From assembly GCF_003334335.1 (NCBI RefSeq), contig NZ_QOWQ01000014.1: a stretch of 64,000 bases of DNA; one strand, given 5' to 3'. Numbering within the stretch: position 1 is the first letter of the stretch; each line of letters starts with the position of its first letter. This document shows, one piece after another, positions 10,958-43,415 of the stretch. Made by a program: the position numbers and the translations under genes. Under the pieces are notes generated by a model. That model ran no database searches. It was not told where the DNA came from and was given only the letters and a program-made list of their open reading frames with translations. The stretch comes from Escherichia coli. GTDB taxonomy: Bacteria > Pseudomonadota > Gammaproteobacteria > Enterobacterales > Enterobacteriaceae.

Positions 10958-11839
10958 ATGGATCTGCGCCGTTTTATTACGCTTAAAACCGTGGTGGAAG
11001 AGGGTTCCTTTTTGCGAGCTTCGCAAAAATTGTGCTGTACACAATCGACGGTGACTTTTCATATTCAGCAGCTTGAGCAGGAGTTTTCAGTCCAGTTATT
11101 TGAGAAAATTGGCCGACGGATGTGCCTTACCCGCGAAGGAAAAAAGTTGCTGCCGCACATTTATGAACTTACCCGAGTGATGGATACGCTTCGTGAGGCT
11201 GCCAAAAAGGAGTCAGATCCGGACGGGGAACTACGCGTTGTTTCGGGCGAAACGTTGCTCTCTTACCGAATGCCGCAGGTGTTACAGCGTTTTCGGCAAC
11301 GCGCCCCAAAAGTGCGTTTATCGTTGCAGTCGCTGAACTGTTACGTGATCCGTGATGCGCTACTGAATGATGAGGCCGATGTTGGCGTCTTTTATCGTGT
11401 AGGGAATGATGATGCTCTGAATCGACGAGAGTTGGGTGAACAATCACTGGTGCTGGTGGCTTCACCGCAAATTGCAGATGTCGATTTTACTGAGCCGGGA
11501 AGACATAACGCCTGTAGCTTTATTATCAACGAACCGCAATGTGTCTTCCGGCAGATATTTGAGAGCACGCTGCGTCAGCGGCGGATCACGGTGGAAAACA
11601 CCATTGAGCTTATAAGTATCGAAAGCATCAAGCGTTGTGTCGCGGCGAATATCGGGGTCAGCTACCTACCGCGCTTTGCGGTGGCAAAAGAGTTGGAGTG
11701 CGGAGAATTAATTGAATTGCCTTTTGGCGAACAGTCGCAGACCATTACGGCCATGTGCGCACATCATGCTGGAAAAGCGGTTAGCCCGGCGATGCACACT
11801 TTTATTCAGTGTGTTGAAGAGAGTTTTGTGGCTGGATAA
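10958..11839 (+). CDS. yfiE: LysR-family transcriptional regulator YfiE
   Basis: ORF 10913..11839; ATG at 10958 (MDLRRFITLKTVVEEGSF...) gives 293 aa; N-terminal HTH typical of LysR regulators. Confidence 0.85.
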   Translation: MDLRRFITLKTVVEEGSFLRASQKLCCTQSTVTFHIQQLEQEFSVQLFEKIGRRMCLTREGKKLLPHIYELTRVMDTLREAAKKESDPDGELRVVSGETLLSYRMPQVLQRFRQRAPKVRLSLQSLNCYVIRDALLNDEADVGVFYRVGNDDALNRRELGEQSLVLVASPQIADVDFTEPGRHNACSFIINEPQCVFRQIFESTLRQRRITVENTIELISIESIKRCVAANIGVSYLPRFAVAKELECGELIELPFGEQSQTITAMCAHHAGKAVSPAMHTFIQCVEESFVAG

Positions 11840-11897
11840 AAATAATGTCGGGATTAAACCCGGCATTTAACTTGTCGACAAAGTGCGCTTTATTCAT

Positions 11898-11996
11898 GCC
11901 GGATGCGGCGTGAACGCCTTATCCGGCCTACAAGATCGTGCAAATTCAATATATTGCATGAGCCACGTAGGCCTGATAAGCGTAGCGCATCAGGCA
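11898..11996. repeat. BIME/RIP-type element: two inverted REP sequences flanking an AT-rich spacer
   Basis: GCCGGATGCGGCGTGAACGCCTTATCCGGCCTACA ... CAAATTCAATATATTGCA ... GTAGGCCTGATAAGCGTAGCGCATCAGGCA; near-identical copy at 42064..42162. Confidence 0.85.
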
Positions 11997-12047
11997 GTTT
12001 TGCGTTTGCCAGCACTTTTAATACCAGGCTTAAACCTGGCATTGAGA

Positions 12048-13382
12048 TTACTCTTCTGTCGTTTGCGGTGGCACGCCCGTTCCGCTTGGTTTACGGCGCT
12101 TACCAATATTTTTGGTGTCGCGATGGCGTTTTTTCACCCGCGGCTTCTCTTTCTCTTTAGCTTTTTTCTTCTCAGCACGTTTAGCCAGTACTTTCTTCGA
12201 TGGCTTGCCGGTCTGCTTTTCGCTTGGCGCACGCGTTTTCGGGCGTAACTCATCAATAACGCGAGCTTTAATTGGCTCTTCAATATAGCGGCCTACTTTA
12301 CCCAGCAGCAGATGGTCATGGGCTTCCACCAGCGAAATTGCGGTGCCTTTACGACCGGCGCGCGCGGTACGTCCGATACGGTGCAAATAAGTATCGCCAC
12401 TGCGCGGCATATCGAAGTTAAAGACGTGGCTGACGTCAGGAATGTCGATACCGCGCGCGGCAACATCGGTTGCGACCAGTACGTTTACGCGACCTTCGGT
12501 CAAACGCTTGATCGCTTCGTTACGCTTGCCCTGTACCATCTCACCTTCGAGATAGCAGTTGTTGATGCCCGCTTCGCGCAGCCAGTTTGCCAGCTCATGC
12601 ACACGCTCACGCTTACGCACAAACACAATTGAGCGGGTCGCTTCCGGCTGTTTTAACAGATGCACCAGCAACGCGGTTTTATGCTCAAGATCATCGGCGC
12701 GGTAATACCACTGATGAATTTTTTTGCGCTCACGGGTGGAGGGATTGGCAGAAACTTCCACCGGATCTTCCAGCAGACGCTCGGCAAAGTCCTGAATCGC
12801 ATCGCCTTCCAGCGTTGCCGAAAAGAGCAGGGTCTGTTTACGCCAGCGCGTTTCGCCAGCAATATGTTCGATATCCTGAGCGAAGCCCATATCCAGCATA
12901 CGGTCTGCTTCGTCGAGGATCAGCGTTTCAACCGCGCGGCAATCGAAGTTCTCTTCTTTTATGTATTGCAGCAGACGTCCGGTCGTGGCGACCACGATGT
13001 CCTGATTTTCGCTGAACACTTCCGCGTGGTTCATATAGGCTACGCCGCCGGTGATGGTGGCGATATCCAGATGCGTATGTTTCGCCAGTTCGCGGGCATG
13101 ATCGGCCACCTGCATCGCCAGCTCGCGAGTTGGGGTGAGGATCAAAATACGCGGCGGACCGGATTTCTTACGCGGGAAATCGAGCAGGTGCTGCAACGCT
13201 GGCAGCAGATACGCCGCCGTTTTACCGGTGCCTGTCGGCGCAGAACCGAGTACATCACGGCCATCGAGCGCAGGCGGAATGGCGGCAGCCTGAATGGCGG
13301 TCGGGCGAGTGAAACCTTTATCCTGGAGGGCTTCCAGCAGGCTTTCGTCGAGTTCAAGTTCGGAAAAAGTCGTTACAGTCAT
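12048..13382 (-). CDS. srmB: DEAD-box ATP-dependent RNA helicase (50S ribosome assembly)
   Basis: 444 aa [31 protein letters not shown]... with DEAD box and lysine-rich C-terminal tail. Confidence 0.95.
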
Positions 13383-17524: not shown

Positions 17525-18480
17525 TGAAGCAACTTTGGTTTGCCATGTCATTAGTGACAGGTAGCCTGTTATTCTCTGCTAACGCCTCGGCCACTCCCGC
17601 GTCCGGGGCGTTATTACAGCAGATGAACCTGGCCAGTCAGTCACTGAATTACGAGCTGTCATTCATCAGCATCAATAAACAGGGTGTTGAGTCTCTGCGT
17701 TATCGACATGCACGCCTCGATAACCGTCCTCTTGCACAATTGTTGCAAATGGATGGCCCGCGCCGGGAAGTGGTACAGCGCGGCAATGAAATCAGCTATT
17801 TTGAACCGGGACTTGAACCGTTCACGCTTAATGGCGATTACATTGTTGATTCTCTGCCATCGCTTATCTATACCGATTTCAAACGCCTTTCTCCTTACTA
17901 CGACTTTATCTCCGTCGGGCGCACGCGTATTGCTGATCGTCTTTGCGAAGTCATTCGCGTGGTTGCCCGAGATGGTACACGCTACAGCTACATCGTGTGG
18001 ATGGACACCGAATCGAAATTACCGATGCGGGTTGATCTCCTTGATCGCGATGGTGAAACGCTGGAACAATTTCGCGTGATTGCTTTTAACGTCAATCAGG
18101 ATATCAGCAGCAGTATGCAGACGCTGGCGAAGGCAAATTTGCCGCCGTTGCTTTCTGTTCCTGTAGGTGAAAAAGCTAAATTCAGCTGGACGCCAACCTG
18201 GTTGCCACAGGGTTTTAGCGAAGTTTCCAGTAGTCGACGTCCGCTACCGACGATGGACAACATGCCTATCGAATCACGTCTCTATTCCGACGGATTATTC
18301 AGCTTCTCGGTAAACGTTAACCGCGCTACGCCATCGAGCACCGATCAGATGTTGCGCACCGGACGCAGAACCGTCAGTACAAGCGTACGTGATAACGCCG
18401 AAATCACCATTGTCGGTGAACTGCCGCCGCAAACGGCGAAACGCATTGCCGAGAATATTAAGTTCGGGGCAGCGCAATGA
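17524..18480 (+). CDS. rseB: periplasmic regulator of sigma-E, binds RseA
   Basis: 318 aa MKQLWFAMSLVTGSLLFSANASA... with signal peptide; start overlaps rseA stop (TAATG). Confidence 0.95.
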   Translation: MKQLWFAMSLVTGSLLFSANASATPASGALLQQMNLASQSLNYELSFISINKQGVESLRYRHARLDNRPLAQLLQMDGPRREVVQRGNEISYFEPGLEPFTLNGDYIVDSLPSLIYTDFKRLSPYYDFISVGRTRIADRLCEVIRVVARDGTRYSYIVWMDTESKLPMRVDLLDRDGETLEQFRVIAFNVNQDISSSMQTLAKANLPPLLSVPVGEKAKFSWTPTWLPQGFSEVSSSRRPLPTMDNMPIESRLYSDGLFSFSVNVNRATPSSTDQMLRTGRRTVSTSVRDNAEITIVGELPPQTAKRIAENIKFGAAQ

Positions 18481-18956
18481 TCAAAGAGTGGGCTACCGTC
18501 GTCTCCTGGCAAAACGGGCAGGCGCTGGTCAGTTGTGATGTTAAAGCTTCATGCAGCAGCTGCGCTTCACGCGCCGGTTGCGGTAGCCGCGTGTTAAATA
18601 AACTTGGCCCGCAAACCACGCATACCATTGTCGTACCCTGTGATGAGCCGTTAGTGCCGGGGCAAAAAGTGGAATTGGGGATCGCCGAAGGCAGCCTGCT
18701 TAGCTCCGCATTACTGGTTTATATGTCGCCGCTGGTGGGATTATTCCTTATCGCTTCGCTATTTCAGCTACTCTTTGCTTCTGACGTCGCAGCATTATGT
18801 GGTGCGATCCTCGGTGGTATTGGCGGGTTCCTGATTGCGCGCGGCTACTCGCGTAAGTTTGCTGCCCGGGCAGAATGGCAACCGATCATCTTAAGCGTGG
18901 CATTGCCGCCTGGCCTTGTGCGATTTGAAACATCTTCGGAAGACGCGAGCCAGTGA
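18477..18956 (+). CDS. rseC: RseC (SoxR-reducing system related membrane protein)
   Basis: 159 aa MIKEWATVVSWQNGQALVSCDVKASCSSC...; overlaps rseB stop. Confidence 0.93.
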   Translation: MIKEWATVVSWQNGQALVSCDVKASCSSCASRAGCGSRVLNKLGPQTTHTIVVPCDEPLVPGQKVELGIAEGSLLSSALLVYMSPLVGLFLIASLFQLLFASDVAALCGAILGGIGGFLIARGYSRKFAARAEWQPIILSVALPPGLVRFETSSEDASQ

Positions 18957-19153
18957 TTTCACTGGCTTTGTTGCATTTTGCATAACAAATGCGAGGACGT
19001 TTCCAGATACCACAATCCATACGGTATGAACATTTCCTCGCCTCAATGTTGTAGTGTAGAATGCGGCGTTTCTATTAATACAGACGTTAAGCTCAGAACA
19101 GCGACTTCTAAAAGCCTGGTTAACCGGGCATTAAGGCACAATAATCATACTTT

Positions 19154-20953
<1,800 letters not shown>

Positions 20954-21995: not shown

Positions 21996-22087
21996 TGAGA
22001 TAAATCTCCCGTGGCTAACGACATCCCCCGTCGTTGTGTATAGAATATTCCCCCGAAGTTTAAGGTTGGCACCTCCAGGTTGCCACG

Positions 22088-22181
22088 GCACACGAAACAG
22101 CGTTGGTCCCCATATACCGGTAAACTGAAACTGCAGCGAAGCAGTTAGCAGAACCATGTATATCAGGTCTGTTTCGTGTGC
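22088..22181 (+). promoter_or_regulatory. long stem-loop in the rnc 5' leader (candidate RNase III autoregulatory processing site)
   Basis: GCACACGAAACAG (22088..22100) is the perfect reverse complement of CTGTTTCGTGTGC (22169..22181), 34 nt upstream of the rnc ATG. Confidence 0.65.
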
Positions 22182-22184
22182 TGA

Positions 22185-23797
<1,613 letters not shown>

Positions 23798-25679: not shown

Positions 25680-25775
25680 AAAAAGTAAAACCCCCGAACT
25701 GGTAAGGAACGGGGGTTTTACTTTTTAACTTTAATTTTGTGCAGCATGCACCCTCAACAACAGCGATTATGGATC
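25680..25775 (-). ncRNA. ohsC: candidate antisense sRNA of the ShoB toxin (OhsC/RyfC-like); ends approximate
   Basis: Minus-strand segment between the bidirectional terminator and the divergent promoter region; carries the reverse complement of the 19-nt repeat that recurs at 25987..26005 in the shoB 5' UTR; known shoB/ohsC locus between acpS and yfhL. Confidence 0.45.
25687..25727. terminator. bidirectional Rho-independent terminator (acpS on plus; short antisense RNA on minus)
   Basis: Stem AAAACCCCCG / CGGGGGTTTT flanked by A-run upstream and T-run downstream, so it can terminate in both directions. Confidence 0.8.
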
Positions 25776-40770: not shown

Positions 40771-42024
40771 ATGTTAAAGCGTGAAATGAACATTGCCGAT
40801 TATGATGCCGAACTGTGGCAGGCTATGGAGCAGGAAAAAGTACGTCAGGAAGAGCACATCGAACTGATCGCCTCCGAAAACTACACCAGCCCGCGCGTAA
40901 TGCAGGCGCAGGGTTCTCAGCTGACCAACAAATATGCTGAAGGTTATCCGGGCAAACGCTACTACGGCGGTTGCGAGTATGTTGATATCGTTGAACAACT
41001 GGCGATCGATCGTGCGAAAGAACTGTTCGGCGCTGACTACGCTAACGTCCAGCCGCACTCCGGCTCCCAGGCTAACTTTGCGGTCTACACCGCGCTGCTG
41101 GAACCAGGTGATACCGTTCTGGGTATGAACCTGGCGCATGGCGGTCACCTGACTCACGGTTCTCCGGTTAACTTCTCCGGTAAACTGTACAACATCGTTC
41201 CTTACGGTATCGATGCTACCGGTCATATCGACTACGCCGATCTGGAAAAACAAGCCAAAGAACACAAGCCGAAAATGATTATCGGTGGTTTCTCTGCATA
41301 TTCCGGCGTGGTGGACTGGGCGAAAATGCGTGAAATCGCTGACAGCATCGGTGCTTACCTGTTCGTTGATATGGCGCACGTTGCGGGCCTGGTTGCTGCT
41401 GGCGTCTACCCGAACCCGGTTCCTCATGCTCACGTTGTTACTACCACCACTCACAAAACCCTGGCGGGTCCGCGCGGCGGCCTGATCCTGGCGAAAGGTG
41501 GTAGCGAAGAGCTGTACAAAAAACTGAACTCTGCCGTTTTCCCTGGTGGTCAGGGCGGTCCGTTGATGCACGTAATCGCCGGTAAAGCGGTTGCTCTGAA
41601 AGAAGCGATGGAGCCTGAGTTCAAAACTTACCAGCAGCAGGTCGCTAAAAACGCTAAAGCGATGGTAGAAGTGTTCCTCGAGCGCGGCTACAAAGTGGTT
41701 TCCGGCGGCACTGATAACCACCTGTTCCTGGTTGATCTGGTTGATAAAAACCTGACCGGTAAAGAAGCAGACGCCGCTCTGGGCCGTGCTAACATCACCG
41801 TCAACAAAAACAGCGTACCGAACGATCCGAAGAGCCCGTTTGTGACCTCCGGTATTCGTGTAGGTACTCCGGCGATTACCCGTCGCGGCTTTAAAGAAGC
41901 CGAAGCGAAAGAACTGGCTGGCTGGATGTGTGACGTGCTGGACAGCATCAATGATGAAGCCGTTATCGAGCGCATCAAAGGTAAAGTTCTCGACATCTGC
42001 GCACGTTACCCGGTTTACGCATAA
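40771..42024 (+). CDS. glyA: serine hydroxymethyltransferase
   Basis: ORF 40765..42024; ATG at 40771 ([41 protein letters not shown]...) gives 417 aa. Confidence 0.97.
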
Positions 42025-42063
42025 GCGAAACGGTGATTTGCTGTCAATGTGCTCGTTGTTCAT

Positions 42064-42162
42064 GCCGGATGCGGCGTGAACGCCTTATCCGGCCTACAAA
42101 ACTTTGCAAATTCAATATATTGCAATCTCCGTGTAGGCCTGATAAGCGTAGCGCATCAGGCA
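42064..42162. repeat. BIME/RIP-type element (second copy)
   Basis: Same REP - CAAATTCAATATATTGCA spacer - REP architecture as 11898..11996; followed by hairpin AAGGCTTCC-TTCG-GGAAGCCTT at 42183..42204. Confidence 0.85.
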
Positions 42163-42221
42163 ATTTTTCGTTTATGATCATCAAGGCTTCCTTCGGGAAG
42201 CCTTTCTACGTTATCGCGCCA

Positions 42222-43415
42222 TCAAATCTGTCGTAACTGCGCCTCAACATACAAATAGCCAATTCCCAGCACCTGTTGTGCGCGGCTTAATTGCCCAAAG
42301 CCAATTTGCGTCGCTTTCACGCTCGGTCCTTCGTCGCGGTCGAACGGGTTAAATCCTGTCTGGCGAATAATAGTATTAAGCCAGTTCTCACCAAAGGCAC
42401 AACTGCGACCGTACAACCAAATCTGATTAATATTGAGGATGTTGAGGAAGTTATACAGACTCAAACCAATGGCATTGGCAGAGCGATCAACCCAGCTGGT
42501 GATCCACGGTTCTCCACTTTGCCAGGCAGCGATTAACTGCGCTGTAGTCAGTTTTTCAGGATCAAGTTGAGTACTAACCGGTTGTGATTTTAGCCATACC
42601 CGCGCCTGTTTTTTTAATGCGCTTAACGAGGCGACGGTTTCCAGGCAGCCATAACGTCCACAGTCGCAGACGACGCCATCCGGATTAACGATGGTGTGAC
42701 CAATCTGTCCGCTACCATACAAACTGCCGCGATAAATTTGCTCGTTAATCACGAACGACGAGCCAATGCCGTAATCAACGTTGATCACGCAGAAATCCCG
42801 TTCCTGCGAATTATTTTGCCATTTCTCCGCCAGCGCCAGCATCACGCAGTCATTATCGACCATCACCCGAATGCCGAGCTTCTCTTCCAGCAGATATTTC
42901 ACCTCCACCGGCGTTGTCCACGGCGCTTGCGGCATGGTTTGCGACACGCCGGTCACAGGATCAACCTGACCGTGGATTGCCAACGCCAGGTTGATGGTAT
43001 GGTCCGGCCACAATTTACGGTGGCGATGCCAGCATTTTTCGATTTCGGACAGCAGCGCCTGCGGCGTCGGTGCATCAATCTGTAAATACTCAAATTCACC
43101 TTTCGGACTTAAACAAGCATTAGCAACCTGACACTCAATACTGGTGGGCGTCACGTTCAGGCACAGCGTCCAGTCACCTTCCGGCGCAATCAGCCATGTA
43201 CCGCTACTATGCCCGCGCGTCTGGCTTTCATCGTCAATATTCACCACCCGTTTTTCGCTTTCCAGTTCCTGCAAAATATTACTGACTGCCGGAATCGAAA
43301 TTTGCGCCAGCCGGGCCAGCGTTGATTTATTGGCGCGCTTTTGCCGGTACAGCAGTTCCAGAATCACGCATTTGTTATGGTGGCGAATCTGTTGATTATT
43401 AATGCAGGCTCTCAT
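42222..43415 (-). CDS. yphH: ROK-family transcriptional regulator / sugar kinase-like protein
   Basis: ORF 42222..43421 minus; ATG at 43415 (MRACINNQQIRHHNKCVILELLYRQKRANKSTLARLAQ...) gives 397 aa; N-terminal HTH plus ROK zinc motif CDCGRYGC. Confidence 0.85.
   Translation of the reverse strand: MRACINNQQIRHHNKCVILELLYRQKRANKSTLARLAQISIPAVSNILQELESEKRVVNIDDESQTRGHSSGTWLIAPEGDWTLCLNVTPTSIECQVANACLSPKGEFEYLQIDAPTPQALLSEIEKCWHRHRKLWPDHTINLALAIHGQVDPVTGVSQTMPQAPWTTPVEVKYLLEEKLGIRVMVDNDCVMLALAEKWQNNSQERDFCVINVDYGIGSSFVINEQIYRGSLYGSGQIGHTIVNPDGVVCDCGRYGCLETVASLSALKKQARVWLKSQPVSTQLDPEKLTTAQLIAAWQSGEPWITSWVDRSANAIGLSLYNFLNILNINQIWLYGRSCAFGENWLNTIIRQTGFNPFDRDEGPSVKATQIGFGQLSRAQQVLGIGYLYVEAQLRQI

Follow-up and report, generated by a model that had tools for sequence, protein, structure and literature searches.

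Two BIME-1 (RIP/RIB) elements between convergent genes in a 64-kb region of Escherichia coli

Two intergenic regions between convergent genes were examined in a window of 64 kb from Escherichia coli (the whole stretch of DNA analysed), which is K-12-like. At locus A, yfiE on the plus strand (stop codon 11837-39) converges with srmB on the minus strand (stop codon 12048-50). At locus B, glyA on the plus strand (stop codon 42022-24) converges with yphH on the minus strand, which ends at 42222. The stop codons thus face each other at both loci, as the original prediction had placed them. The names srmB and yfiE are those annotated under 100% matches of a 2-kb locus-A query in many E. coli chromosomes. 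Coordinates of strain MG1655 were converted to window coordinates via the MG1655 record, with test 41-mers placed uniquely; the RefSeq record of MG1655 carries no repeat_region features, so no curated REP or RIP names are found there. Other Rfam matches above the gathering score in the window were 5S rRNA (91-206), AsrC (antisense of rseC; 18441-19272), rncO (22055-22269), OhsC (25682-25758) and GlmY (34938-35085), which agree with the known K-12 gene order of the region.

The segments 11898-11996 and 42064-42162, which had been singled out as look-alikes by eye, were aligned pairwise. In this ungapped comparison on the same strand (offset 30,166), 89 of the 99 bases were identical. The ten mismatches (11934, 11936-38, 11959-62 and 11965-66) all fall within the variable flanks of a linker, and no difference was found in the Y REP, the inverted Z1 REP or a 20-nt core, TGCAAATTCAATATATTGCA, at 11939-11958 in copy A and 42105-42124 in copy B. 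This core occurs twice in the 64-kb window, in copies A and B only, with 0.01 occurrences expected by chance. REP heads (TTATCMGGCCTAC) are found in the window only at the two loci and in a third element at 63695-63876. Given the identity, the shared core and the confinement of REP heads to so few loci, the resemblance is real and lies far beyond chance. A repeat search of the window widened the pair to 11872-12007 and 42038-42173, corresponding to 136 nt at 86% identity.

In copy A, a Y REP, an L linker and an inverted Z1 REP follow one another between a left and a right end motif. Its Y REP (11898..11931, plus strand; 34 nt, GCCGGATGCGGCGTGAACGCCTTATCCGGCCTAC) is identical in copy B and is followed by the L linker (11932..11966, plus strand; 35 nt), which contains the 20-nt core and, at 11944-11956, an IHF-type site, ATTCAATATATTG. 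The inverted Z1 REP of 30 nt lies on the minus strand at 11967..11996 and reads GTAGGCCTGATAAGCGTAGCGCATCAGGCA on the plus strand. The corresponding parts of copy B are the Y REP at 42064..42097 (plus strand), the 35-nt L linker at 42098..42132 (plus strand), with its IHF-type site at 42110-42122, and the inverted Z1 REP at 42133..42162 (minus strand). We take the REPs to be of the Y and Z1 types, as judged from the consensus sequences of these types and from the contrast with a longer Z2 REP at 63705-63741.

The family consensus runs past the REPs, on the left with ...GATTGTTGACAAAGTGCGCTTTGTTCAT and on the right with ATTTTGCGTTTGTCATCAGTC, and these outer parts of the unit are inverted repeats of one another (GAYTGWTGACAAA). 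Therefore, the whole element is an imperfect palindrome of ~150 nt, and the continuation of the consensus into palindromic ends is the reason why the repeat between A and B extends to 136 nt. The full units span about 11868-12019 in copy A and 42035-42182 (148 nt) in copy B, both on the plus strand. The former limits were taken from the comparison of filled with empty alleles (O157:H7, L121; JJ2434, L124) and the latter from empty alleles after manual realignment; in both cases the ends are those of the family consensus. The conserved end motifs are presumably the 'A' and 'B' motifs that the BIME literature describes outside the REPs. Hence, the coordinates originally proposed cover the REP-linker-REP core, and the repeated unit is to be taken as ~150 nt, not as the 99 nt from REP to REP.

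BIME-1, also known as RIP or RIB, is defined by a Y REP and an inverted Z1 REP, one of each, joined by a long L linker that carries an IHF site (PMC3333891, PMC2817692), and was reported to occur as single copies (PMC3333891). At both loci, the Y and Z1 REPs are inverted relative to each other and enclose a long conserved linker of 35 nt, compared with 33-36 nt in the REP-anchored copies of the family. The site ATTCAATATATTG in this linker shares 8 of the 9 positions that the IHF consensus WATCAANNNNTTR specifies. A and B are each present in the window as a single unit per locus and are located at 3' ends of transcription units, both between convergent stops and B inside the mapped 3' UTR of glyA. 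Copies A and B further have strain polymorphism in common with BIME-1, and we found no substantive difference from the class; the conserved end motifs and the length of ~150 nt merely exceed the 99 nt first marked. The reading as RIP-type BIMEs was thus borne out by an architecture that fits the published definition, and both segments are ordinary BIME-1 (RIP/RIB) copies, an already known kind of element. We assign a probability of about 0.9 to this explanation as a whole, which comprises BIME-1 identity, family resemblance, origin as REP doublets, behaviour as DNA and RNA, and dispensability.

Descriptions of BIME-1/RIP/RIB elements go back to the early 1990s, and those of their polymorphism among strains to 1997. 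The name RIP reportedly goes back to Oppenheim, Rudd and colleagues in 1993, while BIME-1 is said to have been named by Gilson, Bachellier and Hofnung, and RIB by Boccard and Prentki in 1993. The finding therefore carries little weight as a discovery, and the check is useful mainly as calibration.

BIME-2 elements share with BIME-1 the Y REP, the GTAG/CTAC heads and an intergenic location. In contrast to BIME-1, they have Z2 instead of Z1 and short S linkers without an IHF site, form tandem arrays, are preferred cleavage targets of gyrase and are the source of naRNA4. The third element of the window (63695-63876) is BIME-2-like and has two tandem 91-nt units (95% identical), made up of a longer Z2-type REP and an inverted Y-type REP with short linkers. 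It directly follows a plus-strand gene ending at 63693-63695, and RF02564 (naRNA4) matches at 63757-63828 with 72.2 bits (gathering score 59.5).

Related copies were collected in two ways. A scan with the exact 18-nt core GCAAATTCAATATATTGC over one genome per species yielded 118 stretches, ~90 of which sit between a Y and a Z1 REP arranged as in A and B. The hosts of these REP-flanked stretches are Escherichia albertii, E. whittamii, two further Escherichia spp., two species representatives labelled 'E. coli' and three Pseudocitrobacter genomes; the main E. coli reference genome was not among the scan matches. The other core stretches, three short contigs aside, have no REPs and are isolated matches by chance in unrelated taxa. 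In addition, 112 distinct copies from Escherichia and Pseudocitrobacter were gathered by their REPs and not by the core. The exact 18-nt core found no match in the genomes of Salmonella, Citrobacter, Klebsiella or E. fergusonii, for which divergence of the core in these taxa or horizontal spread of the element may account. In the three Pseudocitrobacter genomes, the element carries the exact core and is ~92% identical to the E. coli copies (L024-L031, L040-L048, L108-L112), and one E. whittamii copy (L062) resembles the Pseudocitrobacter subtype. Complete Escherichia-type BIME-1 elements were also seen in a Bacteroides MAG (L017) and in contigs of Methylobacterium frigidaeris (L081, 261 nt) and Desulfosporosinus sp. 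OT (L020, 262 nt); the REP-linker-REP core of the Methylobacterium contig is identical to that of copy B, with different flanks. For such BIME-1 copies on very short or terminal contigs of unrelated bacteria, E. coli contamination is the likeliest source.

Both copies are polymorphic within the species. In BLAST counts, capped at 40 pieces per record, 2,525 of 5,426 complete E. coli genomes carry copy A; the remaining 53% lack it and are 176 nt shorter at this locus. Copy B is carried by 1,933 of the 5,426, and the 64% without it are 134-135 nt shorter there. As copy B also occurs in E. albertii and two other Escherichia species, it is probably old and has probably been lost repeatedly. Strain O157:H7 and the tested B2 strain JJ2434 are without A, and O55:H7 and NC101 are without B; when these four empty alleles were aligned, the filled-only segments shared their ends with the family consensus. 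At locus A, the filled-only segment comprises 11868-12019 together with one copy of a 24-nt hairpin, which accounts for the indel of 176 nt. At locus B, the segment 42035-42182 replaces 13-14 unrelated bases of the empty alleles, TAATCTGTTGAAA[A], so the empty allele does not correspond to a clean excision; the replaced bases loosely resemble the left end motif of the family. Neither copy is needed, as each is missing from roughly half of the complete E. coli genomes or from more than that. Within this region, the elements are dispensable and ride as passengers in 3' UTRs. Since alleles with and without the unit occur naturally at A and B, material is at hand for studying effects on mRNA decay, read-through and IHF occupancy.

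The prediction had also placed additional short hairpins around both copies. This was true of copy A, which has one on each side: hairpin h1 (AATGTCGGGATTAAACCCGGCATT, 11844..11867) begins 5 nt past the yfiE stop, and hairpin h2 (AATACCAGGCTTAAACCTGGCATT, 12020..12043), a direct repeat of h1 at a distance of 176 nt, lies 4 nt before the srmB stop on the minus strand. At locus B, no hairpin is present between the glyA stop and the element, and the only one lies downstream (42183-42204). Empty A alleles have a single hairpin, AATGCCGGGCTTAAACCCGGCATT, between the two stops (305-328 in L121 and L124). Hairpins h1 and h2 are thus direct repeats of one ancestral hairpin, and they have diverged by base changes on both sides of the stem, with pairing kept. 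In the orthologue of locus A in Escherichia sp. E1V33, the arrangement is hairpin-element-hairpin-element-hairpin, i.e., 2.1 copies with a period of 176 nt and 97% identity (L102, 2312-2688). Taken together, locus A exists with zero, one or two hairpin-element units, depending on strain or species.

One possibility is that the 24-nt hairpin was duplicated by the insertion itself, with BIME-1 entering at or near terminator hairpins and producing a long target duplication. We consider this doubtful; to our knowledge, no such duplication is on record for REP/RAYT elements, which by the usual view leave none. The indel at locus A could equally be a deletion by recombination between its two hairpin repeats, and simple unequal recombination may explain both the duplicated hairpin and the tandem expansion in the sister species. 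These two features of copy A are the sole mildly unusual point of the analysis. Tandem Y-L-Z1 arrays were further seen in Escherichia sp. MOD1-EC7003, with 8 x 107 nt (L087, 2667-3524), 4.8 x 162 nt (L089, 13901-14685), 8.2 x 115 nt (L092, 1-941) and 7.3 x 115 nt (L093, 231-1071). Individual arrays have changes of their own in the core, at the N positions of its IHF-type site, where TATA has become TACA or TAGA.

BIMEs have been viewed as non-autonomous elements handled by a REP-associated transposase (PMC3333891, PMC2817692), and their cleavage and recombination in vitro have been reported (PMC3333891). At the loci studied here, the ends of the indels are the ends of the family unit, and tandem amplification occurs, both of which are consistent with a unit mobilised by RAYT. 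The 64-kb window contains no RAYT gene. By analogy, we infer that whole-unit indels, tandem amplification and occurrence in few related genera fit a non-autonomous element handled by RAYT. The BIME-1 unit is a palindromic non-coding repeat of ~150 nt, whose right end motif is the inverted repeat of the left. Such REP doublets would be non-autonomous, and whole units would be gained, lost and tandemly amplified, most likely via the REP-associated tyrosine transposase (RAYT/TnpA-REP) and recombination between repeats. They would persist where they are least harmful, between the 3' ends of convergent genes. In this respect, A and B resemble the RAYT-mobilised REPINs of Pseudomonas and other bacteria, in which a pair of inverted REPs makes up a single long hairpin that replicates, or is gained and lost, as one unit, and which are likewise non-autonomous with the RAYT gene elsewhere in the genome. 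Unlike REPINs, BIME-1 of E. coli has two REP types (Y and Z1) and a protein-binding linker.

The gene upstream of copy B, glyA, reportedly served early on as a model case in work on 3' structure and mRNA decay. Compared with shuffled sequences, both intergenic regions fold markedly better (z-scores -5 to -7.5), with the Y and Z1 arms pairing together, and the REP hairpins are paired in 98% of the alignment cells across the 112 family copies. The REP stems vary so little that they offer scant covariation. RNA of the element is predicted to fold into a long, very stable hairpin and, by analogy with REPs in general, which act as a barrier to 3' exonucleases (PMC12306157), would be expected to slow 3'-to-5' exonucleases.

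In each of three growth conditions, published Term-seq data (PMC7815308, supplementary file 1) place a dominant 3' end at MG1655 2684070/71 on the minus strand. This position corresponds to 42207/8 of the window, 184 nt from the glyA stop and just past the downstream hairpin and its UUUCU. The terminator-like feature as a whole (AAGGCTTCC-TTCG-GGAAGCCTT, then TCT(A)) extends over 42183..42208 on the plus strand, with the hairpin proper at 42183-42204. Since the mapped 3' end falls past this hairpin, the glyA mRNA holds the whole element in its 184-nt 3' UTR, and the same Term-seq list (PMC7815308) gives no 3' end inside element B. A strict scan found no terminator in either intergenic region, the flanking hairpins lacking a U-tract of 5 in 8; the hairpin after glyA marks a real 3' end by Term-seq despite having no match in the strict scan. 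Rho termination regions from the same source (PMC7815308) map to 42410 (glyA sense), 11677 (srmB sense) and 12316 (yfiE sense) of the window; they were called with 800-nt windows and are not assignable to the element. As these regions map downstream of the elements, some transcription passes the elements on every strand examined. The main glyA 3' end is set by the separate downstream hairpin and not by the element, with Rho-dependent termination further on.

These data bear on the reading that the elements are bidirectional terminators of the convergent pairs, preventing collision or antisense read-through. Such a role would suit their site between convergent genes, the very stable RNA hairpins on both strands, the Rho termination regions within a few hundred nt on both strands and the BIME-associated Rho-dependent attenuation of Espeli et al. 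2001, as far as this is cited in PMC12306157. We nevertheless regard it as unlikely, given that glyA has its dominant 3' end past the element, at a separate hairpin, that neither region has a U-tract terminator by the strict scan and that the broad Rho regions do not point to the element. Moreover, genomes without the elements keep the flanking hairpins, which argues that termination is independent of the BIME.

The spacer had been described as resembling the IHF-binding core of RIP elements, and this resemblance exists at the 8 of 9 positions given above. However, one-mismatch matches to the IHF consensus number 56 in the window versus 49.6 expected by chance, so that a consensus match alone is not evidence. 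More informative is the distribution of changes in the 18-nt core among copies that had not been selected for the core. Among 31 substitution events, some of which may be shared by descent between orthologous loci, none fell in C-A-A or T-T-G, and the four N positions of WATCAANNNNTTR took 11. If the events were spread uniformly, CAA/TTG would be missed altogether with a probability of 3.5e-6. This avoidance is the pattern that selection for IHF contacts would produce, and it could also result from some other constraint. For the BIME-1 class, IHF binding in vitro was shown by Boccard and Prentki 1993, as cited in PMC12306157 and PMC2817692. By analogy with the class, the linkers of A and B are predicted to bind IHF as double-stranded DNA, and we infer this from the class literature together with the conservation pattern.

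The predicted binding of IHF also invites a structural reading, namely that a bent BIME-1 serves as an anchor for gyrase or nucleoid proteins, or as a supercoil barrier between convergent units. Roles as domain barriers and gyrase sites have indeed been put forward for BIMEs (PMC6907758, PMC6379681), and a modest Dps ChIP peak covers 11795-11910. On the other hand, the enrichment of gyrase cleavage concerns BIME-2 and not BIME-1, with a slight depletion at IHF sites (PMC6379681), the gyrase affinity of BIME-1 is below that of BIME-2, and the absence of each copy from half or more of E. coli genomes speaks against a required role at these loci. Together, these points make an architectural function of A and B quite improbable compared with their being ordinary, dispensable BIME-1 copies. 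The Dps peak is no. 339 of a published ChIP-seq study (fold 1.95, MG1655 2714368-2714483) and spans the Y REP, h1 and the end of yfiE; according to the same study, Dps generally prefers REP elements.

The linker also matches the Rfam family RF02751 (ES036/CssrF), with 49.9 bits in copy A (11932-11974), above the gathering score of 37.6, and with 34.2 bits in copy B (42098-42140), below it. These matches could be taken to mean that the linker is an independent small RNA gene and that the REPs are mere surroundings. The consensus of the model, AAAuUUGUGCAAAUUCAAUAAAUUGCAGGAaAUACGUAGGCCU, is itself the BIME-1 linker plus the head of Z1, and the 43 nt matched are the family linker followed by the GTAGGCCT head, so any BIME-1 will match RF02751. 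A strict promoter scan found no promoter-like site in either intergenic region, and at locus B the matched region lies inside the mapped glyA 3' UTR, with no 3' end listed within the element. An sRNA gene is therefore very unlikely here, and a short RNA from element B would more simply be a decay intermediate shielded by the hairpin of the BIME-1 unit.

Finally, the near-identity of A and B had been emphasised as a feature of this particular pair, and in this sense it did not withstand comparison with the family. Over the 99-nt region, all pairs among the 112 copies have a mean identity of 86.2% and a median of 86.9%; A and B, at 89.9%, are equalled or exceeded by 24% of the pairs. For copy A, non-orthologous copies from other species (L078, L099, L083 and L077) reach 94-95% identity, and for copy B, Pseudocitrobacter copies reach 92%, so that each is nearer to non-orthologous relatives elsewhere than to the other. 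Both also have their own positional orthologues, copy A in L102 and copy B in L037, L007 (E. albertii) and L091, and the ten A-B differences cluster in locus-specific linker flanks that each copy has in common with its orthologues. A recent duplication or gene conversion across 30 kb, which the 90% identity over 99 nt, the identical REPs and 20-nt core and the similarity reaching into the flanks might suggest, is scarcely credible in view of this family-typical identity, the closer relatives and orthologues of each copy, and outer flanks whose similarity belongs to the family consensus. A and B resemble each other because both belong to one homogeneous family, and not through exchange between the loci; from the likeness of two such elements, no link between their loci can be deduced.

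A tally of gene orientation around 89 family copies, based on crude ORF calling, was dropped, its 8 'divergent' calls being unreliable. In this tally, glyA was mislabelled because an antisense ORF at 40774-42063 is longer than glyA. This mechanical ORF on the minus strand (429 aa) has its ATG in the left flank of element B, where it reads CAT on the plus strand. Two further mechanical ORFs on the plus strand, 11883-12248 (121 aa) and 11903-12160 (85 aa), cross copy A into the antisense of srmB. ORFs that run through the elements or start in them are probably spurious.
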